Positions 2,215 through 23,370 of a stretch of 23,370 nucleotides of DNA are shown piece after piece (within the stretch, counting starts at the first letter, position 1; the number at the start of each line of letters is the position of its first letter). The stretch comes from Leptolyngbya sp. 'hensonii' (GTDB taxonomy: Bacteria; Cyanobacteriota; Cyanobacteriia; GCF-001939115): positions 162,006 through 185,375 of the forward strand of contig NZ_MQTZ01000045.1 of NCBI RefSeq assembly GCF_001939115.1, in the 5' to 3' direction. The notes below the pieces were generated by a model. It made no database searches, was not told the DNA's origin, and was given only the letters and a program-made list of their open reading frames with translations. A program made the position numbers and the translations under genes.

Positions 2215-2389
2215 TCCAGAGCTGCCCAGACGATGCAAAAATTTCAGCACGGCTGTATCCTCCCCAGGCACTATGTCTGTGCTTTTATTGTCTCAAATGC
2301 AACTGGTATGGCTGGGGGATTGCATCAAAATGCAACCTCTCAATGGAGCTGGGCTAATCTAGTAGCCAGTATTGTCTAGAACTGCAGCT

Positions 2390-3175
2390 ATGGCTCATGT
2401 GTCTCGCCTGTTTATCTATCCCATCAAAGCCCTCGATCGGGTGGAAGTGGATCGGGTCACGGTGCTTAAAAGTGGTGCCCTGAAGCACGATCGGGAATTT
2501 GCTCTCTTTGATGCCTCTGGTCATTTCGTCAATGGCAAGCGTCACGATCGGGTCCATGCCTTACGCTCTCGATTTGACCTGGAAACCCGCTGCGTGATAG
2601 TCTCTGCTCCCAGTTTTGCACAAGCGGCCACCTTCCAAATCGATCGGGAACAGGATGCCCTGGCAACCTGGATGGGAGAATACTTTGGGTTTCCAGTCCA
2701 GATTCGCCAGAACCTGGAGCAGGGGTTTCCCGATGACACCGACTCCCCTGGCCCCACCCTGATCAGCACCGCTACCCTGGCCACGATCGCCAACTGGTAT
2801 CCCAACCTGGAAGAAACAGAAGTGCGTCTTCGCTTCCGGGCCAACATAGAAATTGGCGATGTCCCAGCTTTCTGGGAAGATCAGTTGTTTGCTGCTGTAA
2901 ACCAGACCGTTGCCTTTCAGATTGGAGCGGTGCGATTCCTGGGGATTAATCCCTGTCAGCGTTGCGTGGTCGTCACCCGCAACTCCCAAACAGGAGAAGC
3001 AGATCCGAGCTTCCAGAAAATCTTTGCGGCCAGACGACGGGAGACGCTGCCACCCTGGGTCGATCGATCGCGCTTCAACCACTTTTATCGCCTCGCCATC
3101 AATACACGCCTGCCAGAATCAGAAGCTGGGAAAACGATCGCCCTTGGAGATGAGATCAAAATTCAGCTTTGCTGA
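2390..3175 (+). CDS. MOSC-domain protein (YcbX/MOCO sulfurase C-terminal-like)
   Basis: The track ORF starts at a TTG at 2372. The ATG at 2390 gives the N-terminus MAHVSRLFIYPIKALDRVEV, typical of the MOSC N-terminal beta-barrel. The conserved Cys context INPCQRCVVVT is present downstream. The last two codons and the stop (cttTGCTGA) are supplied by the inserted MITE. Confidence 0.7.
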   Translation: MAHVSRLFIYPIKALDRVEVDRVTVLKSGALKHDREFALFDASGHFVNGKRHDRVHALRSRFDLETRCVIVSAPSFAQAATFQIDREQDALATWMGEYFGFPVQIRQNLEQGFPDDTDSPGPTLISTATLATIANWYPNLEETEVRLRFRANIEIGDVPAFWEDQLFAAVNQTVAFQIGAVRFLGINPCQRCVVVTRNSQTGEADPSFQKIFAARRRETLPPWVDRSRFNHFYRLAINTRLPESEAGKTIALGDEIKIQLC

Positions 3176-3321
3176 ATGCAAATATGAATTACCCTCATCC
3201 CCAACCCTTCTCCCGCAGGAGAAGGGAGCTAAAACTCTTGTTCCCTCTCCTTTGGGAGAAGGCTAGGGTGAGGGCTGCATAAGGCTCAAGCACGAAAATC
3301 ATCCTTCTATTCAGCAACGCC
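3165..3321. mobile_element. 157-bp MITE, copy A. TIRs are AGCTTTGCTGAAT ... ATTCAGCAACGCC. Flanked by an 8-bp direct repeat CAAAATTC at 3157-3164 and 3322-3329.
   Basis: The 157 bp are, allowing a few mismatches, the reverse complement of 9970-10126. Termini are inverted repeats of consensus GGCKTTGCTGAAT. A perfect 8-bp target-site duplication flanks the element. Internal hairpins are present (ccttctcccgcaggagaagg). Confidence 0.65.
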
Positions 3322-3716
3322 CAAAATTCTCCCTACCTGAAGCCCCACAAAGGTTTTGCCCGCAACGCTCTCGCCTCTTCTGAGTCAGCATCATGCTCAT
3401 AGAACTTAACTTCTTCAATCGCTGATTGACTATATAATCTTTAGGTCGGGCAAGCTTCAGTTTTTGTCCGACCTCAAGGCTGGTTGCATGGGTTGGGTGG
3501 AGCCTGGCGAAACCCAACATTCATCAAGATTTAATCAAGGTTTCATTGGGTTCCATTCGCACTCCATCCAACCGACCAATTAAGCTTGCAACGCTACTAG
3601 CCTTAAGCCACAGTTCAGGAGGAAAAAGGAAGTTCCAGAGAGCTAAGTCCCAAAGAGCTTCGAAGGGGCTTCATCACGCGACAGACTCTTTTTCCTGATA
3701 CAAGGAGTACAGTCCT

Positions 3717-4787
3717 ATGAGCAGCGTTTTACAACAGCGGCAAAAGCTTGATCCTCTTGCCATCTGGTCAGACTTCGCAGATTGGATTACCAGCACACAA
3801 AACCGGATCTATATCGGCTGGTTCGGGGTGTTGATGATCCCAACCTTGCTGGTTGCGGCCTTCACCTTCATCATTGCCTTTACTGCAGCTCCTCCCGTCG
3901 ATATGGAGGGCATTCGAGCACCCATCACAGGGTCCATCCTGGAGGGTCGCAATCTCATCACAGCCGCAGTGGTCCCAACCTCTGCAGCGATCGGCTTACA
4001 TTTTTATCCCATCTGGGAAGCCAGTTCCCTGGATGAATGGCTCTATAACGGTGGTCCCTATCAACTGATCCTCTTGCACTTTTTAATGGGTATCTGGTCT
4101 TATCTAGGCCGGTTGTGGGAACTGAGTTATCGCCTGGGGATGCGGCCCTGGATTGCTGTGGCCTTTTCAGCCCCGGTCGCTGCTGCGACAGCCGTGTTTC
4201 TGGTTTATCCTATAGGACAGGGTAGTTTCTCTGAAGGTATGCCCCTGGGGATTTCTGGCACTTTCTACTTCATGTTTGCCCTCCAGGCACAGCACAATAT
4301 TCTGATGCATCCCTTTCACATGCTGGGGGTGGCTGGCATCTTGGGTGGTGCTCTGTTGAGTGCTGTGCATGGCTCCCTGGTAACAAGCAGTTTAATTCGA
4401 GAAACCAGCGACTTAGAATCTGCAAATATGGGCTACAAATTTGGTCAGCAGGAAGGAACCTACAACCTGTTGGCTAGCCATGCAGGCTATCTGGGCCGAC
4501 TGTTGATCCCGCAAGTGGGTGCCCGCAATAGCCGTTCAGTTCATTTCCTTTTGGGGGCAGTCCCTACGATCGGCATCTGGTTTGCCGCTCTCGGCATCAG
4601 CACGATCGCCTTCAATTTGAATGGGTTTAATTTCAACCATTCCATTCTGGATAGTCAGGGGCAGGTCATTTCCACGGATGCGGACCTCCTAAATCGTGCG
4701 ACTCTGGGCATTCAGGTGATGCATGGCCTGAATACCCATCATTTCCCGAATCTGATTGCTGGGGGCCAGGAAATTCCACTGAGTTAA
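3717..4787 (+). CDS. psbA: Divergent photosystem II D1 paralogue (rogue/sentinel-type rD1) lacking Mn4CaO5 ligands and the C-terminal extension
   Basis: 356 aa with an ATG preceded by AAGGAG. Clear D1 homology throughout ([54 protein letters not shown]). Aligned to canonical D1: D170->E (FSEGMPLG), E189->Q (LQAQHNIL), E333->G, D342->N (HHFPNLIA), and E130->L. The ChlF QD motif is absent (SYLGRLWEL). The protein ends ...GGQEIPLS without the processed C-terminal tail. Confidence 0.85.
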
Positions 4788-4885
4788 AGCACCCATCTGG
4801 AACCCTGGTTCATCACCTGATCCACCCAACAGCCAGAGCCTTTTAGCTAGCAACAGCAAAACACAATCGGGGAGCGATGATTAAT

Positions 4886-4925
4886 GGATAGGGGTGGGGC
4901 AGATAAGTCTGCCCCACCCCTATCC
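4886..4925 (+). terminator. 18-bp perfect-stem hairpin (GGATAGGGGTGGGGCAGA taag TCTGCCCCACCCCTATCC) about 100 bp downstream of the rD1 stop. Candidate terminator or 3' stabilising stem-loop.
   Basis: Perfect inverted repeat read directly from the sequence. The downstream U-tract is weak (ttgcatcc), so this may instead be a GC-rich palindromic element of the GGGGTGGGG/CCCCACCCC family. Confidence 0.35.
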
Positions 4926-5053
4926 TTGCATCCCTATATAATCTTGTTGAGTACAATGCGTTGAGCACAGCATGTTTGCGGCATATCTCCCCAAACTAGA
5001 CCCACGATTAACCTGTATGTTGCTAGCTTCCTATCCCAACCCACAAAACAGCC

Positions 5054-6677: not shown

Positions 6678-7697
6678 CTAACTCTCGACTCGCCCCTGCC
6701 CCAAAGCCCAGTTCAACGCCAGGAAGACAGCACCCAGGGTCAGCAGCAGCACAGGTGCAGTGGCAAACCCCTGAGAGACCCCCGACAACAGGGAAAAGCC
6801 CCCCAGGGCGATCGCCAGTCCCAGGCCCAATCCAGCAGCCGTTGCCGGATGCTGGGGCAATAACCGGGCGATCGCAGCCAGGGTCAGGGGGGTCACAGAC
6901 TGCAACAAGGCTAGGCCCAGCAGTAACGGGATGGTCTGGGTTCCAGCCAGGGTCAGCAGGGGGATAGCCAGGGCCAAGGCCAGTCCAGCCCAGCGTCGCC
7001 ACCCCCAGAGATCGGCCAGGAAGCCTCCCAGGAGTTTGCCGATCGCTGCCGCCAGGGCCAGTTCCACCAGCAGGGTAACTGGCTCCCGGTGCAGCACCTG
7101 CACCGCATTCCAGACCGCAGAACGGAGGGCGATCGCCCCTAGCAGCACCAGCAGCAGGCTGTCCTGGCCTTCTGGCAGCAGTTCCCCTGCAGCTTCCTGA
7201 CTGGCAGGTGCAGGCTGGGGAAAGCCCAACATGGCCCCAGCGAGTATCAGCAGAACCAGCCCCCAGGGCAGGACATATCCAGCCAGGGCCAGAACGCCTC
7301 CCAATGCCAGACCCAGAACCCCCGGAGCTGTAAAACAGGCTGGCCCGATCGCTGAGTTAGGGGTGGCGGAGAGGGCGATCGCCCCAGCTCCCACGTGAAA
7401 AGCAGCGGACCCCAACCCGGCCAGAAGAACGGCTCCAGCGGGATGATGGGGCACCAAGGTCGAGAGGGTCAGGAGAAGCAGGCCGAGGAGGGTCACCCCA
7501 TGGGGACAACGTCCGCGATCACAGAGGAGACCGATCGCAGGTTGGCCTGCAAACCCCAGGGCATTGTAGAGCAACACCAGGGCCAGCGCCTGTCCGGATG
7601 AATGAGTCTGCACGATGGTTGCCAGCAAAGCTCCAGCCGTGGCATCAGCAACGCCATGGGTCAGCCCAAGTAGCAGCGGCAATCCCAGCCTGGCCAT
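6678..7697 (-). CDS. Polytopic integral membrane protein (Ala/Leu/Gly-rich, about 10 TM), family not assigned
   Basis: Long hydrophobic ORF, 346 aa on the track from a GTG at 7718. The ATG at 7697 gives MARLGLPLLLGLTHGVADA. Last gene of the minus-strand ABC operon. Strong third-position GC. Confidence 0.4.
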   Translation of the reverse strand: MARLGLPLLLGLTHGVADATAGALLATIVQTHSSGQALALVLLYNALGFAGQPAIGLLCDRGRCPHGVTLLGLLLLTLSTLVPHHPAGAVLLAGLGSAAFHVGAGAIALSATPNSAIGPACFTAPGVLGLALGGVLALAGYVLPWGLVLLILAGAMLGFPQPAPASQEAAGELLPEGQDSLLLVLLGAIALRSAVWNAVQVLHREPVTLLVELALAAAIGKLLGGFLADLWGWRRWAGLALALAIPLLTLAGTQTIPLLLGLALLQSVTPLTLAAIARLLPQHPATAAGLGLGLAIALGGFSLLSGVSQGFATAPVLLLTLGAVFLALNWALGQGRVES

Positions 7698-7701
7698 CGG
7701 T

Positions 7702-8157
7702 CTATCGGACCAGATCACTCAAGACCGTCGGCACCACAGGCACAGCAATAATCAAAAGCACGTAGCTGACCACATTGGCCAGGACAGTGGCCTTCCAGGT
7801 TTGGCGCGGCGGGTGTTTGGCAAGGAGGGCCAGAATACCGCCTTCAATCGCGATCGAACTCGCCAGGCAAAACACCCACCAAATCACCACTGCAGCAGGA
7901 CCCATGAGAAACACCAGCATAAACGCCAGGAAGGAAGTCAGCAGAACACCGGTCAGGGTCGAGATGGTATTCACCAGCAGGGACGCCAGCAGGGCTCGGG
8001 GAAAGGCCGCCCACCTGAGCCAAAACAGGACGAGCGTTTCACTCAGGACAATCAGCACAGCGAGGACAACCAGGGTCAAGATCGGCACTGTTGGATCTCG
8101 TAACACGGGTCCCAATCCCACGTCAGCCAGAAGCGGTGCACATAGATAAATGTTCAT
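7702..8157 (-). CDS. Small hydrophobic membrane protein (4 predicted TM), hypothetical
   Basis: 151 aa. Its ATG overlaps the TGA of the upstream ABC gene (ATGA at 8154-8157), giving translational coupling. Segments are highly hydrophobic. Confidence 0.4.
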   Translation of the reverse strand: MNIYLCAPLLADVGLGPVLRDPTVPILTLVVLAVLIVLSETLVLFWLRWAAFPRALLASLLVNTISTLTGVLLTSFLAFMLVFLMGPAAVVIWWVFCLASSIAIEGGILALLAKHPPRQTWKATVLANVVSYVLLIIAVPVVPTVLSDLVR

Positions 8158-9893
8158 TTGGCGTCATTGTCACTAAATTGCTGGGCATAATACCGGGCAT
8201 AGCGATTTCCCTGGGCCAGTAACTCGGTATGGGTACCCGATTCGACCACCTGTCCCTGTTCAAGGACCAGAATTCGATCGGCCTTGCGGACGGTTGCTAA
8301 GCGATGGGCAATGATAAACACAGTCCGATCCTGCATCAACCGCTCCAGGGCCTCCTGTACCAGGGCCTCCGATTCCGAATCCAGGGCCGAAGTGGCTTCG
8401 TCCAAAATCAGGATGCGAGGATTAAGCAGGACAGCCCGGGCGATCGCAATCCGCTGACGTTGCCCCCCAGAAAGGTTCACACCCCGTTCTCCCACCCAGG
8501 TTTCGTAGCCATCGGGAAACTGGCTAATGAACTGATGGGCATTGGCAATTTTGGCGGCCTTCTCCACAGCCTGAAGTTCAAAGTAATCCTGACCAAAGGC
8601 AATATTCTGGGCGATCGTCCCAGAGAACAGGATTGTCTCCTGGGGAACGATGCCGATTTGCCGCCGCAGACTTTTCAACGTCACCTGCCGGACATCAATG
8701 CCATCCACCAGAACCTGACCGGATTGGGGATCATAGAAGCGGGGCAGGAGGTTGACCAGGGTCGTCTTACCGGCTCCAGATGCGCCGACCAGGGCAAGCA
8801 TTTCCCCTGGCAGGGCAATTAGATTCAGATCACGCAAAACCGGCTGGTCTGCATGATAAGCAAAACTGACATGACGATATTCAACCTTCCCTGTCACTGG
8901 CGGCAGGGTCACAGCATCAGGCTTTTCTACAATCGTGGGTTTGATTGCAAGAATCTCGAACACCCGGTCCATTGAGGCTTCCCCCTGCTTGAACTCGTTA
9001 TAGTTCGAGGTGACCGTGTTGATCGGGTCAATCAACATGGCCACAGCAGCGATGTAGCTGATGAACTCGGTTCCTGTCAGATTGTTCTGCGAGATCTGCC
9101 AGCCGCCCAGGCAAAACAGGAACACCACACTCATGGCATACAGAAAGCCAGAAATGGGCATCTGAATTGCTTTCAGCCATTCAGCCTGATATTTGGCCAG
9201 ACGGCTCCGCTCTGACTCTCGTTTAAAGCGCTTGATCTCATAATCCTCAGCAGCAAAGGCTTTAATCAGGCGAATGCCACTAAAGACCTCCGTTAACAGG
9301 GAGGACAGATCGGACACCCGGTTTTGACTATGGCGAGAAAAGACCAGTAACCGGGCCCCAAACCAGGTGATGAGCAGGGCCAGCAGGGGCGCAATCAGTA
9401 GGGTAGCCAGGGTCAGTTGCCAGTTCAGGAAGATCATGTAACCCAGCACAATGATCAACTGCAAACTGTTGGGGGTGAATTGCTGGAAGACTTTACCAAT
9501 GACTTCCCCAATCCGATCGACATCTTCGGTCAGCCGATAGGACAGATCCCCCGTCGCAGCCGTTTCAAAGTAGCTCAGGCTCAGCCGCAACAGATGGGTA
9601 TAGACCTGATTGCGCAAATCCAGGGCCATCTTCAAGGCTGCCTTTGCCATCCAGGCATCTTGTCCATACTGCAGCACAGCCCGAACCAAAAAAATGACGG
9701 CATAAAAACCAGCCATTCTAGCCAAACCCGCCAGGTTCCCCTGGCCTACATAGGTGGCCGTTTGAGACATGGATGCTGCCAGAACTGGCCAGGTGAGGTT
9801 ATAGGCCAGGGTGCAAAGCAGGGCCTGCCCGATCGTGAACCAGTGGGGCTTGATATAAGCCAGAAGTTGCCAGGAATTAGAGCGTGCTTTCAA
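8154..9893 (-). CDS. ABC exporter, fused permease/ATP-binding protein (ABCB/MsbA-like)
   Basis: 579 aa with an N-terminal 6-TM domain. Walker A GASGAGKTT, ABC signature LSGGQRQRIAIARA and Walker B ILILDEATSALD are present. The apparent start is TTG (MKARSNSWQLLAYIKPHW). Confidence 0.85.
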   Translation of the reverse strand: MKARSNSWQLLAYIKPHWFTIGQALLCTLAYNLTWPVLAASMSQTATYVGQGNLAGLARMAGFYAVIFLVRAVLQYGQDAWMAKAALKMALDLRNQVYTHLLRLSLSYFETAATGDLSYRLTEDVDRIGEVIGKVFQQFTPNSLQLIIVLGYMIFLNWQLTLATLLIAPLLALLITWFGARLLVFSRHSQNRVSDLSSLLTEVFSGIRLIKAFAAEDYEIKRFKRESERSRLAKYQAEWLKAIQMPISGFLYAMSVVFLFCLGGWQISQNNLTGTEFISYIAAVAMLIDPINTVTSNYNEFKQGEASMDRVFEILAIKPTIVEKPDAVTLPPVTGKVEYRHVSFAYHADQPVLRDLNLIALPGEMLALVGASGAGKTTLVNLLPRFYDPQSGQVLVDGIDVRQVTLKSLRRQIGIVPQETILFSGTIAQNIAFGQDYFELQAVEKAAKIANAHQFISQFPDGYETWVGERGVNLSGGQRQRIAIARAVLLNPRILILDEATSALDSESEALVQEALERLMQDRTVFIIAHRLATVRKADRILVLEQGQVVESGTHTELLAQGNRYARYYAQQFSDNDAK

Positions 9894-9969
9894 AGGAGAG
9901 AAACCAGAAAAATAGGCATTGCACTTCCAGAATAATCTCTAAGGAGCCCCAGGTGATGGTTGAAACATT

Positions 9970-10126
9970 GGCGTTGCTGAATAGAAGGATGATTTTCGTG
10001 CTTGAGCCTTATGCAGCCCTCACCCTAGCCCTCTCCCAAAGGAGAGGGAACAAGAGTTTTAGCTCCCTTCTCCTGCGGGAGAAGGGTTGGGGATGAGGGT
10101 AATTCATATTTGCATTCAGCAAAGCC
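9970..10126. mobile_element. 157-bp MITE, copy B (inverted relative to copy A). Flanked by an 8-bp direct repeat GAAACATT at 9962-9969 and 10127-10134.
   Basis: Reverse-complement match to 3165-3321. TIRs are GGCGTTGCTGAATAG ... CATTCAGCAAAGCC. Perfect 8-bp TSD. Confidence 0.65.
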
Positions 10127-10337
10127 GAAACATTTAGGTTCTGGTCGTGGTTTTACGCTTTCACCCCAGGCATCAGGACAGGGGCTCCGTCTTGATCCAA
10201 ATGGCTACGGCCTGAGATTAGTAAGTCAACCCGTTGAAACCTGCTACACCCCCCAGCCTGGGGATGTCCTCTCTATTACCTATCCGGATAAAATATTTCA
10301 GCGTTGTCTTAAAGATTGACTATCCACCATCCTGACT

Positions 10338-11381
10338 ATGGAGAATAGGTTTTTCCTACGTAACGTCTGGTACTACGCCATGCCAGGGCAACACCTCAAG
10401 CCCGGAGCCATGATTAGTAAAATGTTCCTGGGGGAACCAGTGCTACTGGCCCGCTGTAATACCGGTCAGATATTCGCCCTGCGAGATATTTGCCCCCACC
10501 GGGGCATTCCCCTATCCTGTGGACGGTTCGATGGGCAAGAGGTCGCGTGCTGCTATCATGGTTGGCGATTTGATGCCAGTGGTCACTGTACCTGCATCCC
10601 CTCTTTAGTCACAGGGCAGGAACTGGATGTCAGTCGGTTTACCGTCCGCCAATATCCAGTCCAGGAAGTTCAGGGCAATATCTGGATTTACATGGCTGAG
10701 CACGATCGTCCCGATCATGCGCCTGCGATCGAGGTGCCCACCATTCCCCACCTGGGGGATCAGACACCCCGGATGCTGGAAACGTCCCACTTCCCCTGCC
10801 ACATTGACCATGCCGTCATTGGCTTAATGGACCCGGCCCATGCTACTTTTGTGCATCAAGTCTGGTGGTGGCGCTCTAAGGGAGCCCTGTTTGAGAAAGC
10901 CAAGCAGTTTGATCCCGCTCCTTACGGCTTCCAGATGCGACGACACCGGCTGTTGAAAACTTCCTTCCTCTATCGCTTGTTGGGAAATGCGCCCGAAGTT
11001 GAAATTATTTTTCGCCTTCCGGGTATTCGGATTGAAACCGTGATGGGGGATCGCCATGCGGTTACCAACCTAACCACCGTAACCCCCATGTCAGAAGCGG
11101 AGACGGAAGTGACCTCAATGTTCTACTGGACCAATCCCTGGTTCTCCCTGATCCAGCCCCTGGTGCGCCCCCTGGTTCGGGCTTTCCTGGAACAGGATCG
11201 ATCAGTCGTGGCAAAACAACAGCTTGGCCTCCGCCACAACCCCGCTTTGATGTTGATTAAGGATGCTGATACCCAGGCTCGCTGGTACTTTCAGGTAAAA
11301 ACAGAATATGCCCGCGCGATCGCAGAACAGCGGGAGTTCATCAATCCAGTTAAGGAACAGGTCCTCCGCTGGCGCAGTTAA
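10338..11381 (+). CDS. Rieske [2Fe-2S] non-haem iron oxygenase (PAO/Tic55-like family)
   Basis: 347 aa with Rieske motif CPHRGIPLS...CCYHGWRF near the N-terminus. The downstream mononuclear-iron domain is typical of the pheophorbide a oxygenase-like group common in cyanobacteria. Confidence 0.7.
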   Translation: MENRFFLRNVWYYAMPGQHLKPGAMISKMFLGEPVLLARCNTGQIFALRDICPHRGIPLSCGRFDGQEVACCYHGWRFDASGHCTCIPSLVTGQELDVSRFTVRQYPVQEVQGNIWIYMAEHDRPDHAPAIEVPTIPHLGDQTPRMLETSHFPCHIDHAVIGLMDPAHATFVHQVWWWRSKGALFEKAKQFDPAPYGFQMRRHRLLKTSFLYRLLGNAPEVEIIFRLPGIRIETVMGDRHAVTNLTTVTPMSEAETEVTSMFYWTNPWFSLIQPLVRPLVRAFLEQDRSVVAKQQLGLRHNPALMLIKDADTQARWYFQVKTEYARAIAEQREFINPVKEQVLRWRS

Positions 11382-16626: not shown

Positions 16627-16844
16627 AAAGCTGAAGCATGATGAGCGATTCACTCTTACCCCACTCCAAATCCTGTAGACTCCCGGGCACCAGGTGCGTG
16701 GAAACTTAGCCTGTGGTCCCCTTTAATATCCAAATTTAAACCGCATCCATCGCTCAATTCTAGTGATTTCAAGACACCCTCCTATTCTGCCGCTAACAGG
16801 CATTGTGCACCCAGATCGATTTCAGAGGTTAATCCACCGACTTC

Positions 16845-17133
16845 GGCGTTGCTGAATAGCGGGAGGAATCAAACAGGAATCGGAACATCCCAAAATCTCA
16901 AGTAGTGAAGTAGCCAACGAATTGAGTACCTCAGCATTTCTTCTGATTTGGAGTAGCACAATGTTTTGCGATGTAACCGAGCAAGATAGGGTCGCAAGCG
17001 GGTATTTTCACCTTCGACTCGTGTCATATAGGTTTCGCTCACAATCTGGTCGCCTGGTGGAATAAACCCCGGATAGACGCTCCAACCATCAGATCAAAGC
17101 TAACCCTAATTCATCCCTCCATTATGCAACGCC
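16845..17133. mobile_element. Decayed IS1-family element remnant sharing the MITE terminus GGCGTTGCTGAATAG, with a degenerate opposite end ...TTATGCAACGCC
   Basis: The left end at 16845-16859 is identical to the MITE TIR. The interior encodes an IS1 InsB-like transposase C-terminus on the minus strand. The right end at 17126-17133 is GCAACGCC, as at the MITE end. Flanking CCGACTTC (16837-16844) versus CGACTTC (17138-17144) is a possible imperfect TSD. Confidence 0.4.
16872..17093 (-). pseudogene. IS1-family transposase (InsB-like) C-terminal fragment with no N-terminus
   Basis: The minus-strand frame reads ...GFIPPGDQIVSETYMTRVEGENTRLRPYLARLHRKTLCYSKSEEMLRYSIRWLLHYLRFWDVPIPV*. The LARLxRKTLC(F/Y)SKSxEM motif matches the IS1 InsB C-terminus. 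The fragment is bounded upstream by an in-frame stop and lacks a start and the catalytic domain. Confidence 0.45.
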
Positions 17134-17146
17134 GTCTCGACTTCAC

Positions 17147-17773
17147 TTATTCCACCAGATGTTGATTTTCGGGATTAGTTGCAAGGCTCAGTAGAATATG
17201 GATTTGCTGTCGAAATTCAGCAACCAGGCTGCTATGAACATGTTGTTCAAATAGATCGGCAAGTGCCTGGTGTAGCCAGAGGTTATCCTTTTTGCTGGCA
17301 GCAAAGGCTGACCAGGCACTTTCGCCAGTTTGACGCAGGTTAGTAATCAGCGATCGCACATTGTGTAGCTTATCAGCCAGGATGACGCGCTGGGCTTCTG
17401 GCGAAGCATGGCGAATTTGGTTGAGATAGTCGAGCTTATGGCTTTTCCAGGGTTGGGAAGCAGAGCAGGGAGGAATCGTGCAATCATGAACGATCTCGGC
17501 AACTTGTGAACCATAGCGACGCAGAATTTCTGTGTAGATGGGCTCACCCCCCTGATCCTCAACAGCATCGTGGAGGAGGGCGGCGATCGCTTCATCCTCG
17601 CTGCCACCGTCTTCCAGTACCAGGGCGGCTACAGCCATGAGGTGACTGATGTAAGGTACGGCATTTACTTTACGGGATTGGTAGCGATGTAAGTGGAGGG
17701 CATAGGTAAAGGCATCAGCGAAGCGATCGCTCAAAATCACATCAAGGTGGATCTTTTCAGAAACGTGGGTCAT
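17147..17773 (-). CDS. Stand-alone RelA/SpoT-type HD-domain hydrolase (small alarmone hydrolase/Mesh1-like)
   Basis: 208 aa. HRYQSRKVNAVPYISHLMAVAALVLE...AIAALLHDAVEDQ matches the (p)ppGpp-hydrolase HD signature (H..Q.RK.GEPYI.HPL.VA.IL...AALLHDV.ED). The ATG overlaps the TGA of the upstream gene (ATGA at 17770-17773). Confidence 0.7.
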   Translation of the reverse strand: MTHVSEKIHLDVILSDRFADAFTYALHLHRYQSRKVNAVPYISHLMAVAALVLEDGGSEDEAIAALLHDAVEDQGGEPIYTEILRRYGSQVAEIVHDCTIPPCSASQPWKSHKLDYLNQIRHASPEAQRVILADKLHNVRSLITNLRQTGESAWSAFAASKKDNLWLHQALADLFEQHVHSSLVAEFRQQIHILLSLATNPENQHLVE

Positions 17774-19200
17774 AGCAGGTCATCATCATATAACTGCATT
17801 TCTTGCTTGACTTCCTGAGCGGTACGTTGACGCAATTCCCAGGGAAGCAATACTTCTACGTTGGGTCTCCAGGCGCGGAGTCGTTGGAAAACGTTGGGGT
17901 CATCCTGGCGGTAGTATGCCTGATAGTAGGCATCATCGGGGGAGCGATGCTGCCAGAGGCGCAGGAGATGTTCTTGAAGCTGACCAGAGAGGGTCTGACG
18001 GATGAGGAATTGCACCTGATGATAGGGGATTTTGCGAAAGGTGGTATGGCGCAGGGTGTCGCGAATATAGCGGTCATCCCATTTGCGATCGAACCGTAGT
18101 AGAAGTAAGTGGCGGGGTTGGTAGTAATCAAACCCCCAGGCTTCATCCATCGCCGTTTCGATCTCCTCTGGGGTGGGGAGGGTTTGTTTCTGGTATTGCT
18201 GGTAAAGCTTTCGGGGGACAGTGGTATCTTTCCAATTTAGGGAATCGATGGCGAGGATGCGATCGAGGCGGTAATTGCGCCAGTTGAGCGCAGAACTGGC
18301 TGCTTTGGGAAACTGACCATAGGCACACAGGTAGGGTCCACGACGGTAGTAATAGATGCAAACGGGATAGACCACGAGAGGACAACTCCGGGTTTCCCCT
18401 GCACTCTGGTAGTGAAGGCGTACCGGCGGAATGGGGGTTTGCTGCCAGATCTCTGAGAGTAAGGCTTGCCAGTCATCCACGCGATCGAGCTTGTTTTGGG
18501 AAATGACGTAATCGACATGGACAAAGAAGCGGGGGTATCCCTGGAAGGTCCGGGAGAAGGTGTCAGCAATAGCTGCCAGATCGGGCTGGGTAAACAAGGT
18601 GAGCTCCTGCCCGGAGGGAGACTGGATGATTGGGGCTCCAACATGGGGATAATCGGGATAGGAAGTGACTTTTTGAAATTTGTTTTCCTGGATATGGAGC
18701 CATCCTGTGGTAGCAAGGTGATGCAGATCGCTGGAAAGGGTGCGGCGGGTAAACCCAAACAGGCGAGTTTGAAAAAGTAGGTGATCCAGATTGGGCGGCA
18801 GGAGATCATGGTCAATGAGCGATTGGTGCAGTTGATCGCGCTGTTCCTGGATCTGACCTTGCCCAGGCTGCTTACCCTGGTAAACCTGCCACTGGGATTG
18901 GGTGGTAGTCAAATCTGGATGAAAGAGCCAGGCAGCGGTGGGTTTAGTGCAGGGACAGGAGAGACGGTGGAGGGTTGGTTTGGTTTCCCCGCTGGGATGG
19001 TCAGGGGTGAAAAACTGATCGCGCCAATCTGCGTAGCTGAAGGTTTCTGGTAAAGCCAGGGTGTCACCCATTTCGCCGTAGAGTAGATGTAACCAGACCC
19101 ACAGGCGAATGGCTTGAAGGAAGTTTTGCTTGAGAGAACCCCGCACTAACCACTGCAACAGGGGAATGTTGGGAGACTCTTGCCAAAATGCATCAGCCAT
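17770..19200 (-). CDS. WYL-domain protein (putative ligand-binding transcriptional regulator of the CRISPR/defence island; TIGR03985/sll7009-like)
   Basis: 476 aa. A WYL core is recognisable around GPYLCAYGQFPKAASSALNWRNYRLDRILAIDSL (compare the WYLvGwc...RtFRLDRI motif of PafBC/BrxR-type WYL domains). The gene is transcribed divergently from the csx3-like operon and is translationally coupled to the HD hydrolase. Confidence 0.5.
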   Translation of the reverse strand: MADAFWQESPNIPLLQWLVRGSLKQNFLQAIRLWVWLHLLYGEMGDTLALPETFSYADWRDQFFTPDHPSGETKPTLHRLSCPCTKPTAAWLFHPDLTTTQSQWQVYQGKQPGQGQIQEQRDQLHQSLIDHDLLPPNLDHLLFQTRLFGFTRRTLSSDLHHLATTGWLHIQENKFQKVTSYPDYPHVGAPIIQSPSGQELTLFTQPDLAAIADTFSRTFQGYPRFFVHVDYVISQNKLDRVDDWQALLSEIWQQTPIPPVRLHYQSAGETRSCPLVVYPVCIYYYRRGPYLCAYGQFPKAASSALNWRNYRLDRILAIDSLNWKDTTVPRKLYQQYQKQTLPTPEEIETAMDEAWGFDYYQPRHLLLLRFDRKWDDRYIRDTLRHTTFRKIPYHQVQFLIRQTLSGQLQEHLLRLWQHRSPDDAYYQAYYRQDDPNVFQRLRAWRPNVEVLLPWELRQRTAQEVKQEMQLYDDDLL

Positions 19201-19338
19201 ATCCTAGATGGTGCTCTATCAATTTGCCTACTTGTATGAGTGTGCCACAGACATGGAGGAGAGGGTTTCCAATTGAATGCCTCTTAAGCTGATATTGAGG
19301 TTGAGAATCCAACATGTTCCTTTGATAGGATCAGTTTG
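19201..19338. promoter_or_regulatory. Divergent intergenic/promoter region between the WYL-domain gene (minus) and the csx3-like operon (plus)
   Basis: 138-bp non-coding gap between two divergently oriented start codons. This is the likely site of autoregulation by the WYL protein. No operator has been defined. Confidence 0.3.
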
Positions 19339-19695
19339 ATGTCAAACACTATTTATATGGCTGCGATCGAGTTGACGTGTATTTCTCATCGGACAGCATC
19401 AGGGCTCGCCTATCAGCACTTGCATATTCATCTGGCAGCGGAAGATGGGTTGATTGAGCCAGAGGACTTGAAAGGGCTGGTTGTGCCAGACACAATCGTG
19501 TGGAGTCAGGGAGTGGTGATTGAAGGAAAGGCTCCCATTTGGTTGTATGGCTATCTGGTGCATGCCTGTCATCCAGCGGCTTGGGTCGCCTGTTATGATC
19601 CCCGGCTGGGAGATGGGGGTGGGGCAGTAGTGGTAGCCACCCATGCGCGCCAAGTGAAAGTTGGTGAAGTGCTTCTTACGACGTTACCCCTATGA
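19339..19695 (+). CDS. Csx3-like small protein (putative Crn3 ring-nuclease family)
   Basis: 118 aa from the ATG at 19339; the track uses a TTG at 19336. The motif GKAPIWLYGYLVHACHPAAWVACYDPRLGDGGGAVVVATH resembles the Csx3 core as recalled (PIW..YDPRLGAVVV). It is clearly paralogous to the N-domain of the next gene. Its stop overlaps the next ATG (ATGA at 19692-19695). Confidence 0.45.
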   Translation: MSNTIYMAAIELTCISHRTASGLAYQHLHIHLAAEDGLIEPEDLKGLVVPDTIVWSQGVVIEGKAPIWLYGYLVHACHPAAWVACYDPRLGDGGGAVVVATHARQVKVGEVLLTTLPL

Positions 19696-20579
19696 TTCGC
19701 TTAAGCCGAATTGAGTCGAATTATCAGGTTGTGTCGGTGTTACCTCATGCGGAGGGACGGGCGATCGACCCTATAGAACTGATCGACCTGCAGCTCCCTC
19801 ATGATGTGGATCTAAAGCAGCCTGTGATTCTGTTTGGTCCCGTGCCTACTTGGGTTTATGGGCGGCTGGTTGCCCTATGCCGGGAGGCTCCCTGGGTTGG
19901 TTGTTTCTCGGCTCCAGAGGCAGAAGCAGTCGTGATCCAAAGTCGAGTGGCGAATGTGGCAGTGGGGGATGTGATTGCCATTCCGCTGGGGCGGGAAAAG
20001 TTGGCTCCAGCGGTGCTGGTAGTGGGACCGCCAGATAGTGGGAAGAGTGTTTTGTCGAATGCATTGCGCAGGAGTTTACTGGCGCATTATCCGCACAGTT
20101 CTATCTTTTTGCATCGGGCGAATTGGGATGGTGAGGGGAACTGGAGCCATGAGGGGCAAGATCATGCCCTGATCCAGCGTCTTGTGCGGAACCATGAACG
20201 CCGCATTCACGAACGCCCCTCTGCAACAGAATTGATGGCGGCGTTTTTTGCCTATCACGAGGCAGCGGTGATGAATTTGCGGCGGGTGGTGGATCTGGTG
20301 ATTGTGGATGTGGGAGGGAAGGTGCAACCTGAGAAGGCAGGGGTGCGCGATCGCTGTACCCATGGGGTGATTATTAGCCGCGCACCGGAACTGGTAGGGG
20401 AGTGGCGCAGGTTTTGTGAGCCAACGCTGGAGTTGCTGACGGTGATTCACAGCGTACTGGAGGAACGGTGTGAGGTGAAGTCGAGAGTACCCCTGGAGGT
20501 AATTGCGGGACCTTGGTTCCGGGGGAAAACGCACCAAGTGCCAGAGGTGGTGTGGCAGGCAGTGGGGAAATTGTTATAG
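19692..20579 (+). CDS. Csx3-like N-terminal domain fused to a P-loop NTPase (Csx3-AAA-type fusion)
   Basis: 295 aa. Residues of about 40-100 (GPVPTWVYGRLVALCREAPWVGCFSAPEAEAVVIQS) align with the upstream small protein. Walker A VLVVGPPDSGKSVL and a Walker B-like VVDLVIVDVGG follow. Confidence 0.5.
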   Translation: MIRLSRIESNYQVVSVLPHAEGRAIDPIELIDLQLPHDVDLKQPVILFGPVPTWVYGRLVALCREAPWVGCFSAPEAEAVVIQSRVANVAVGDVIAIPLGREKLAPAVLVVGPPDSGKSVLSNALRRSLLAHYPHSSIFLHRANWDGEGNWSHEGQDHALIQRLVRNHERRIHERPSATELMAAFFAYHEAAVMNLRRVVDLVIVDVGGKVQPEKAGVRDRCTHGVIISRAPELVGEWRRFCEPTLELLTVIHSVLEERCEVKSRVPLEVIAGPWFRGKTHQVPEVVWQAVGKLL

Positions 20580-20591
20580 CCCTGGTTAGGA

Positions 20592-21776
20592 CTAGCCAAA
20601 ATCTTTGCCGATACGCTGGTTCAGATCTAAAAGGCAAGCTTGTCGCTCACCAAGTGTTTGACTGGAGGTTTCGATCTCAAACCGAACTATCCAGGTGCCG
20701 TTGCTCAGCGTTCCTTCCAAGGCATCTCCTTGCAAACGAAAGGAATTGAGGCTGGAGAGTGCGGGATTCCAGTAGAAGGTGCGACAGCCTGTGACATAGG
20801 GGCAGACATCGGTGATGCGTTGCAGGTAACGGATGATTGGGTCTCTGGCATTACCCCAATTATGGTTAGACATCTGGGGTTTACGTTTCTGTTGCGGGGG
20901 GACTGGAGATGGCAAATGCAACGCCATTTGTGGCAGTTGTCGTTCTCGAAATGCCTCATAAAATACCTGACCTGTGGGCGACAGGGTGATGTAAACCTGC
21001 CCGTCAATCTCTACTCGTTCTACCAGGGGTTCCAGGGCTTCTGACCAGTCATCCTGCACGGTTTCCCAGGGGGTCTGGTCGTGGGAGTTGCGCCCCAAAG
21101 CAGTGAGCCAGCCGTTATGCTGAATCCACAGGTCAAAATCCAGGCTGACGGGCATGGGTGGAAAGGCGATGATTTCGCTAAACCGTTCATGTTTGTAGTA
21201 AACCGGAACTTTGAGCGCCTGCCCCAATAGAACGGCGATCGCAATTTGTGCTTTATACCCCCCCGTGGCGTTGATCGCGCAATACTCGGCTCCGCGCAAC
21301 CGCAATCCGCAGGACATTTGCTTAACCAGGTTGCGTAACCCATCAGTGCGAAAGGTTTTGGGATGATTGTCTTGAAGCCCTTCTACTCGATACGGAGTGG
21401 CGGTATGCCCCAGTGCCTGGTAGTAATGAACCAGGAGGGTGGCGATCGCAGTGCCTTCGTCAGTGTCAGAGTGACAAAACAGGAGGGTGGCGGTAGGGGT
21501 GACATAGCCCCGCTGGAGCAAATCACCAATGGAGTTGATTTCGGCTCCACATAGACGCAGGGTGGGCGGAAGCTGGCTTAAATGCAGGGCGAGGGTAACC
21601 CAATCAGTATGCTCAAAGGTGGTTTTGAGGGTGGCAACGGTATCAGTGGTGAGATGGGCACGATCGGGGACAGGCTGTTTTTGGAGCCACTCATCGTAAT
21701 GGTCGGGGGCAGGCAAGGTTCTAAGATTGGGATTAAACAGGCTCGTACCAACGGTACAGATAAGGGTATGACGCAT
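20592..21776 (-). CDS. CARF-domain protein (cyclic oligoadenylate sensor) with an uncharacterised C-terminal domain of about 190 aa
   Basis: 394 aa. The N-terminus MRHTLICTVGTSLF is the CARF motif-I glycine/serine loop. AINATGGYKAQ is the CARF motif-II GG(Y/F)K. The C-terminal half has no convincing HEPN Rx4-6H motif, no clear PD-(D/E)xK motif and no HTH. Confidence 0.6.
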   Translation of the reverse strand: MRHTLICTVGTSLFNPNLRTLPAPDHYDEWLQKQPVPDRAHLTTDTVATLKTTFEHTDWVTLALHLSQLPPTLRLCGAEINSIGDLLQRGYVTPTATLLFCHSDTDEGTAIATLLVHYYQALGHTATPYRVEGLQDNHPKTFRTDGLRNLVKQMSCGLRLRGAEYCAINATGGYKAQIAIAVLLGQALKVPVYYKHERFSEIIAFPPMPVSLDFDLWIQHNGWLTALGRNSHDQTPWETVQDDWSEALEPLVERVEIDGQVYITLSPTGQVFYEAFRERQLPQMALHLPSPVPPQQKRKPQMSNHNWGNARDPIIRYLQRITDVCPYVTGCRTFYWNPALSSLNSFRLQGDALEGTLSNGTWIVRFEIETSSQTLGERQACLLDLNQRIGKDFG

Positions 21777-22687: not shown

Positions 22688-22695
22688 ACGACTGA

Positions 22696-23368
22696 GTTTT
22701 CAACTATTCCAATTTGACCCAATTGGTAGGGGTCCTGAGTGCTCAGGAGCAAGCGGATAGGGATGCCGCTAGAGAGTTTTTCAACTATTCCAATTTGACC
22801 CAATTGGTAGGGACAACTCTCGTCGTGACTCTCCGAGTCTCGATGGTTCTAAGGTCGGTTTTCAACTATTCCAATTTGACCCAATTGGTAGGGAAGTGGT
22901 TGCAAAATGCAAAGACGGAGTTGTTGTGGAGAACTCCGCTGGGTTTTCAACTATTCCAATTTGACCCAATTGGTAGGGGGTTGCGAAGTAGTTGGGAATC
23001 TTTGTTTTCTTCGAGAAAGTTTTCAACTATTCCAATTTGACCCAATTGGTAGGGTGTGCTTGCTGCGGTTATTGCACTGGTGATTTGGCTTCTAGTTTTC
23101 AACTATTCCAATTTGACCCAATTGGTAGGGTTTGTTTTTTTGAAAAAGCAGGAGAATTTCCCATGTCCAACAAAGGTTTTCAACTATTCCAATTTGACCC
23201 AATTGGTAGGGGGTCATTGTTTCAGTTGTTTATTCCCTTTTCAAGGAGAAGTTTTCAACTATTCCAATTTGACCCAATTGGTAGGGACTTTGTTTACACC
23301 TGGAACGAAACCAACAATGGCACTACCACCTAGTTTTCAACTATTCCAATTTGACCCAATTGGTAGGG
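22696..23368 (-). CRISPR. CRISPR array with at least 9 identical 36-bp repeats GTTTTCAACTATTCCAATTTGACCCAATTGGTAGGG and 8 spacers of 39-49 bp. The array continues beyond the window end.
   Basis: Repeats lie at 22696-22731, 22777-22812 (first base T), 22858-22893, 22943-22978, 23019-23054, 23095-23130, 23176-23211, 23251-23286 and 23333-23368. The reverse complement ends ...ATAGTTGAAAAC, the usual 3' GAAAC-type handle. This, together with the degenerate repeat at the left end, suggests minus-strand transcription with the leader to the right of the window. There is an internal 6-bp palindrome CCAATT/AATTGG. Confidence 0.95.
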
Positions 23369-23370
23369 AG

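Follow-up and report, generated by a model that had tools for sequence, protein, structure and literature searches.

A MITE family with IS1-type ends in Leptolyngbya sp. 'hensonii' and other cyanobacteria

Two 157-bp repeats of Leptolyngbya sp. 'hensonii' are very probably non-autonomous MITEs that are moved in trans by an IS1-family transposase of a cyanobacterial branch. They were studied in a stretch of 23,370 nucleotides (contig NZ_MQTZ01000045.1, positions 162,006 to 185,375), which is referred to below as the window, and they represent a widespread cyanobacterial MITE family linked to the IS1 family. Elements of the IS1 family are about 740-1180 bp long and have inverted repeats starting GG...TG. 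The window itself is cyanobacterial in character, with 15 GCGATCGC sites and a psbA-like gene.

Results

Structure of the two MITE copies

The source genome has two MITE copies within the 23 kb of the window, placed in inverted orientation relative to each other (Table 1). Both are 157 bp long and differ at 2 of the 157 positions, namely position 1 (A/G) and position 96 (A/G), which corresponds to 98.7% identity. Both copies lie between perfect 8-bp direct repeats (CAAAATTC for copy 1 and GAAACATT for copy 2); similarity between the copies ceases exactly at the element ends, and the DNA past the duplications is unrelated. The termini, GGCTTTGCTGAAT (AGC... in copy 1) and GGCGTTGCTGAAT, match at 12 of 13 positions, or 11 of 13 in copy 1, and the imperfect inverted repeat reaches about 26 nt (20/26). 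Folding gave minimum free energies of -70.4 and -76.9 kcal/mol for the two strands (z = -6.8 and -6.7, respectively, against shuffled sequences), with a long hairpin on either strand. The two inverted 157-bp copies with terminal inverted repeats, the perfect 8-bp target duplications on both and the internal hairpins, all of them part of the original prediction, were thus recovered.

The MITE is without an ORF of its own, and the only coding sequence that enters it is read-through from a MOSC-domain gene. A search of Rfam with the MITE returned no family at the gathering score; matches to microRNA families at a relaxed threshold were at chance level and were discarded. Promoter and terminator scans around both copies gave nothing above shuffled sequences.

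Table 1. Coordinates of the MITE copies, the IS1-family remnant and nearby genes in the window.
Feature	Position	Strand	Remarks
MOSC-domain ORF	2372-3175		last codons replaced by the insertion of MITE copy 1
Left target duplication of MITE copy 1	3157-3164		CAAAATTC
MITE copy 1	3165-3321	+	157 bp; end A (IRL-like) at 3165, end B (IRR-like) at 3321
Right target duplication of MITE copy 1	3322-3329		CAAAATTC
psbA-like (Photo_RC) gene	3717-4787		start 395 bp downstream of MITE copy 1
ABC transporter gene	8154-9893	-	left of MITE copy 2
Left target duplication of MITE copy 2	9962-9969		GAAACATT
MITE copy 2	9970-10126	-	157 bp; inverted relative to copy 1
Right target duplication of MITE copy 2	10127-10134		GAAACATT
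Rieske-domain gene	10338-11381	+	right of MITE copy 2
Internally deleted IS1-family element	16845-17133	-	289 bp; IRR GGCGTTGCTGAATAGCGGGAGGAAT at 16845, IRL GGCGTTGCATAATGGAGGGATGAAT ending at 17133
InsB-part transposase C-terminus remnant	16869-17090	-	73 codons + stop, DGWSVYPGF...FWDVPIPV*
HD_4 protein	17147-17773	-	
WYL-domain protein	17770-19200	-	
Csx3	19692-20579	+	
Cas_APE2256/CARF	20592-21776	-	

Sites of insertion

Copy 1 took the place of the last three codons of the MOSC gene and provides its stop; the ORF now ends ...GDEIKIQLC*, with the TGA (3173-3175) inside the MITE. When copy 1 and one target duplication were removed in silico, the C-terminus became ...GDEIKILPT*, and at the level of this protein reconstruction ...KILPT fits the endings of the orthologues (...KIL, ...KILPLHH and ...KILSLEAH). 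The MOSC protein is 100% identical to the Leptolyngbya sp. 'hensonii' protein P0121, including ...GDEIKIQLC, and the nearest relative of the gene is 70% identical in protein. Copy 2 lies in the divergent intergenic region between the ABC transporter and Rieske-domain genes. For annotation of this genome, copy 1 accounts for the odd C-terminus and stop of the MOSC protein, and copy 2 for an insertion in a divergent promoter region.

A hairpin with 25-bp arms (4879-4932) was observed 3' of the psbA-like gene; several psbA groups have been reported for Leptolyngbya sp. 'hensonii' (PMC5776472).

A deletion derivative of an IS1-family element

The terminal 15 nt of the MITE (GGCGTTGCTGAATAG) are identical to the right inverted repeat (IRR) of a second kind of element in the window, which starts at 16845, and to those of the full-length elements L131 and L132, described below. 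The frame inside this element matched Pfam PF03400 (DDE_Tnp_IS1) with 31.7 bits (cut-off 24.1), and its product shares up to 91% identity with transposase fragments of the IS1 family from cyanobacteria. A decayed element opening with the MITE terminus at this position, and encoding an InsB-like transposase C-terminus, had been predicted; both features are present, and the element is in addition bounded, at 289 bp, with the left inverted repeat GGCGTTGCATAATGGAGGGATGAAT also kept. By alignment to the 755-bp relative (L132:4-758), about 465 bp of interior are missing. The 289-bp element, whose two ends are intact, is a dead remnant left by internal deletion from the likely parent insertion sequence, and in terms of transposon biology such a derivative is an intermediate. 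It shows that Leptolyngbya sp. 'hensonii' has harboured IS1-family elements. Within the window, no IS1-family transposase gene is intact.

The 7-nt repeat CGACTTC flanks the 289-bp element (16838-16844 and 17138-17144); it abuts one end and sits 4 nt (GTCT) past the IRL at the other, and is not a clean 8-bp duplication. The end of the remnant lies 14 bp past the HD gene of a CRISPR accessory-type gene neighbourhood (17147-21776; Table 1). Positions 22688-23370 hold a CRISPR array that runs off the end of the window; its 36-nt repeat, GTTTTCAACTATTCCAATTTGACCCAATTGGTAGGG, occurs at least nine times at a spacing of 75-85 nt.

Full-length relatives and match of the ends

Full-length relatives of the remnant were found in other genomes. 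In two of these (L132 and L131, about 755 bp), InsA (119 aa) and InsB (115 aa) overlap at TCGAAAAAAAC, a slippery A7 run at which -1 joining of the frames gives a fused protein of 230 aa. The fused protein matched the NCBIfam model NF033558 (transpos_IS1 equivalog) over its full length (positions 1-199 of 199) with 268.5 bits, the cut-off being 100, and NF050000 (IS1/IS1595 zinc-binding domain) with 49.7 bits. A PDB sequence search with the fused transposase returned no solved relative. Among annotated elements of the plasmid collection, ISAcma4 of Acaryochloris marina was the closest (74% protein identity); it is annotated as 'IS1-like element ISAcma4 family transposase' and has the ends GGCGTTGCTCAATGACGGGATGAAT and the 8-bp duplication AAGAAAAG. 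Another full-length element (L010) carries the 8-bp duplication CTATTTTT. The three elements measure 755 bp (L132), 796 bp (ISAcma4) and about 769 bp (L010), and all begin GGCGTTG or GGTGTTG. The 8-9 bp target duplication of the IS1 family was seen in ISAcma4, in L010 and in a copy of E. coli IS1A (GATTTTTG).

The MITE end was compared with the ends of these elements over its first 13 and first 26 nt. Agreement was 13/13 and 21/26 with the IRR that L132 and the window remnant carry, 12/13 and 20/26 with ISAcma4, and 8/13 and 11/26 with E. coli IS1A, whose end was verified. Both MITE ends are closer to the IRR than to the IRL, since the closest full-length elements have GGYGTTGCATAAT at their left ends and not ...GCTGAAT. 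An IS1-family element at the P0012 loci (L001-L008) was considered as the closest partner and rejected, as its right ends differ (GGCGTTGCAGATTT...). When the transposase was searched by tblastn against the at least 120 MITE loci described in the next section, only one partial copy (L102) was found.

The comparison of the ends with IS1-family entries and the search for a full-length autonomous copy both gave positive results, and the assignment of the MITEs to the IS1 family as non-autonomous elements is supported. 'IS1-family, cyanobacterial branch' is the accurate wording, because the similarity to E. coli IS1 is weak (8/13).

Distribution of the family

Further copies with target duplications were sought with the pattern TTGCTGAAT-N(116-146)-ATTCAGCAAMGCC in a collection with a single genome for each prokaryotic species. 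At least 120 loci were obtained, the source-genome copies being absent from the matches listed. These matches include at least 117 elements of 142-172 bp with MITE-type ends, spread over about 45 genome assemblies. The hosts, again among the matches listed, are nearly all Cyanobacteria and include Leptolyngbyales, Phormidesmis, Stenomitos, Tildeniella, Elainellales, Nostoc, Calothrix, Fischerella and others, with at least nine loci in Phormidesmis priestleyi BC1401. Four matches in other phyla had no second proper end and no duplication, and were attributed to chance; the same applies to a single match in viral contigs, which was without a proper left end or duplication.

The 8-mers flanking the 117 listed elements were identical in 56, differed by one mismatch in 19 and by two in 12. 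In a displaced control, in which the right 8-mer was moved by 10 nt, none of the 117 had one mismatch or fewer. The duplicated sites of the listed elements are 69% AT against a background of 52%. The symmetrised target reads V-A-A-W-W-T-T-B, which is roughly palindromic, and both sites of the window fit it. For repeat masking, the signature GGCGTTGCTGAAT ... ATTCAGCAACGCC over 142-172 bp with an 8-bp AT-rich duplication defines a maskable family spread through Leptolyngbyales, Phormidesmiales, Elainellales and Nostocales.

A shorter element of 99 bp, which has the termini GGCATTGCTGAAT and ACTCAGCAACGCC and an AT-rich duplication that has decayed, was observed on plasmid pCC7120alpha of Nostoc sp. 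PCC 7120 (NC_003276; L139 251-349).

The palindromic interior

The interior of the MITE is a palindromic module of about 85 bp that is not derived from an insertion sequence. It contains two local hairpins, CCCTTCTCC-loop-GGAGAAGGG and CCCTCTCC-loop-GGGAGAGG. This interior is common to 60 of the 117 listed elements at about 80-91% identity, none of the matches listed being near-identical; in the other 57, the same ends enclose palindromic interiors that are quite unlike it. The core was also found without IS1-type ends, on a Pseudanabaena plasmid (NZ_AP017564; L135 151-236) and at two other loci (L051 1027-1118 and L020 3478-3572), and between unrelated inverted repeats at L067 3957-4137 and L066 (about 7106-7236). 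Since 57 listed elements differ inside and the core occurs without IS1-type ends, the ends and the interior of the MITE appear to have separate histories.

When a hand-specified structure was applied to 62 sequences, 92% of cells paired, against 44-56% with the partners slid. Covariation was scored on the same 62 sequences, and 6 pairs were changed on both sides against 6.1 expected from column shuffles, with no excess. With RNAalifold, indels in the MAFFT alignment left the consensus fragmentary. The palindromy of the interior is real, and selection on the structure is not supported by covariation.

Some family members contain further insertions that resemble hairpins and measure about 20 nt (CCTCACGAAGTGGGGCAAAGCC; GTAGCTTGCTTCCCGAAGGGT), among them L017, L018, L020, L031, L079 and others at columns 46-67 of alignment A2, and L026, L036, L040 and L043 at columns 168-186. 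The insertions are reminiscent of very small nested repeats.

Discussion

Proposed mode of transposition

The imperfect terminal inverted repeats of about 26 bp (GGCGTTGCTGAAT-nnnn-GTATGAAT) would be the sites of binding and cleavage. The enzyme would be an InsAB'-type DDE transposase whose two overlapping reading frames are joined through -1 frameshifting at an A-run, and its binding and catalysis at the MITE ends are deduced here from sequence comparison. The target would be cut with an 8-bp stagger, repair of which would give the 8-bp duplication, and AT-rich, roughly palindromic sites (V-A-A-W-W-T-T-B) would be preferred. Leptolyngbya sp. 'hensonii' presumably has, or once had, an active copy of the transposase. 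The two window copies may have moved recently and been amplified within the lineage, as suggested by their identity of 98.7% against at most 91% elsewhere among the matches listed. The current understanding of transposition is unchanged by this finding.

Alternative explanations

It is also conceivable, but rather unlikely, that the MITEs are inactive relics, derived from IS1 and immobile in this genome, the autonomous partner having been lost and only degraded copies surviving. This would agree with the presence of a dead deletion derivative as the sole IS1-family sequence in the window, with the lack of a named 'hensonii' transposase among the close homologues and with the mutated first base of copy 1 (A instead of G). 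The near-identity of the two copies and their perfect duplications speak against it, and the nearest copies elsewhere, at 80-91% identity among the matches listed, favour recent amplification within the lineage.

Two further readings would make the interior, rather than the ends, the reason for the repetition, and both are very improbable. The palindromic core could be the primary unit, a REP-like or other small dispersed repeat that spread by another route and acquired IS1-type ends incidentally, and the cores of about 85 bp that lie without such ends (on the Pseudanabaena plasmid and in L051 and L020) or between unrelated inverted repeats (L067 and L066) would be expected on this account. 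The IS1-type termini, however, are the exact boundaries of both window copies, and it is these termini, not the core, that the 8-bp duplications adjoin; many of the 57 other listed elements, with the same ends around different interiors, also have 8-bp duplications. As the same ends enclose different interiors in these 57, the IS1-type ends are the constant mobile feature. Equally hard to credit is a role as a regulatory hairpin, for instance a terminator or a stabiliser of mRNA, or as a structured non-coding RNA, for which the element would have been retained, with selection rather than transposition behind the repetition. The very stable fold (z about -6.8), the pairing of 92% of cells among 62 members against 44-56% with the partners slid and the position of both copies at gene ends or between genes are in line with such a role, but the number of covarying pairs is that expected by chance (6 against 6.1), Rfam gave no match, neither promoter-like nor convincing terminator-like sites were found, and the duplications and transposon ends account directly for the repetition. 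Mobilisation in trans by an IS1-family transposase is accordingly the preferred explanation of the MITE copies.

The modular interiors provide a modest lead on how MITEs are constructed. Tentatively, the IS1-type ends might serve as a reusable chassis that has repeatedly acquired, or been invaded by, independent palindromic hairpin modules across cyanobacteria, an idea held at present with less confidence than its opposite. If it were true, the hairpin modules would form a second, separately mobile layer nested in the MITEs, and the family would document the assembly of MITEs rather than the simple internal deletion of an insertion sequence.

Comparison with known elements

The finding is well supported but ordinary, as MITEs and IS1-family elements are both known in cyanobacteria. 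Cyanobacterial MITEs already described include Nezha, the MaeMITEs and the Anabaena MITEs (PMC3184786, PMC2779907, PMC3542288), and IS1-family elements have been reported in Microcystis (PMC2779907, PMC11448079). A full-text literature search found neither the terminus sequence nor ISAcma4, and the genome paper of strain hensonii makes no mention of transposons or MITEs.

The MITE resembles the cyanobacterial IS1-family insertion sequences (ISAcma4, and ISMae1 and ISMae3 of Microcystis) in that the ends start GGCGTTGC and run to about 25 nt with ...GGGATGAAT, in the 8-bp target duplication and in the cyanobacterial hosts. It differs from them in its length of 157 bp, the absence of a transposase gene and an unrelated palindromic interior. 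With E. coli IS1 (IS1A) it shares, through its partner, the transposase family by profile (PF03400 and NF033558), with two frames and a -1 frameshift on an A-run, and in the element itself a GG..(T)GCTG-type terminus and a duplication of 8-9 bp (GATTTTTG on both sides of the example); the ends agree at 8/13 and 11/26 positions only, and the hosts and the sequence branch are different. In the chromosome of E. coli strain 10, the left end of IS1A was observed to be partly duplicated in tandem (L138 901-966, with GGTGATGCTGCCAACTTACTGAT at 901 and 934).

Nezha was reportedly described by Zhou, Tran and Xu in 2008 as a MITE of Anabaena variabilis and Nostoc PCC 7120. The 99-bp member of the present end-family on pCC7120alpha lies in the strain where Nezha was described. 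Nezha elements are about 130-170 bp long, share their ends with an ISNpu3-like insertion sequence, have a stable fold and insert at AT-rich targets (PMC3184786). Compared by description, the present family agrees with Nezha in its cyanobacterial hosts, its size, the stability of its fold, the AT richness of its targets and the sharing of its ends with an insertion sequence; the reference copy of Nezha is listed with a direct repeat of 10 bp (PMC6042816), as against 8 bp here. MaeMITEa-h of Microcystis, Correia and MITEAba12 resemble the present elements as short, non-coding sequences with terminal inverted repeats, target duplications and hairpins that are presumed to be mobilised in trans (PMC2779907, PMC10969869), and they differ from them in their ends, in their partner families and in the lengths of their duplications.
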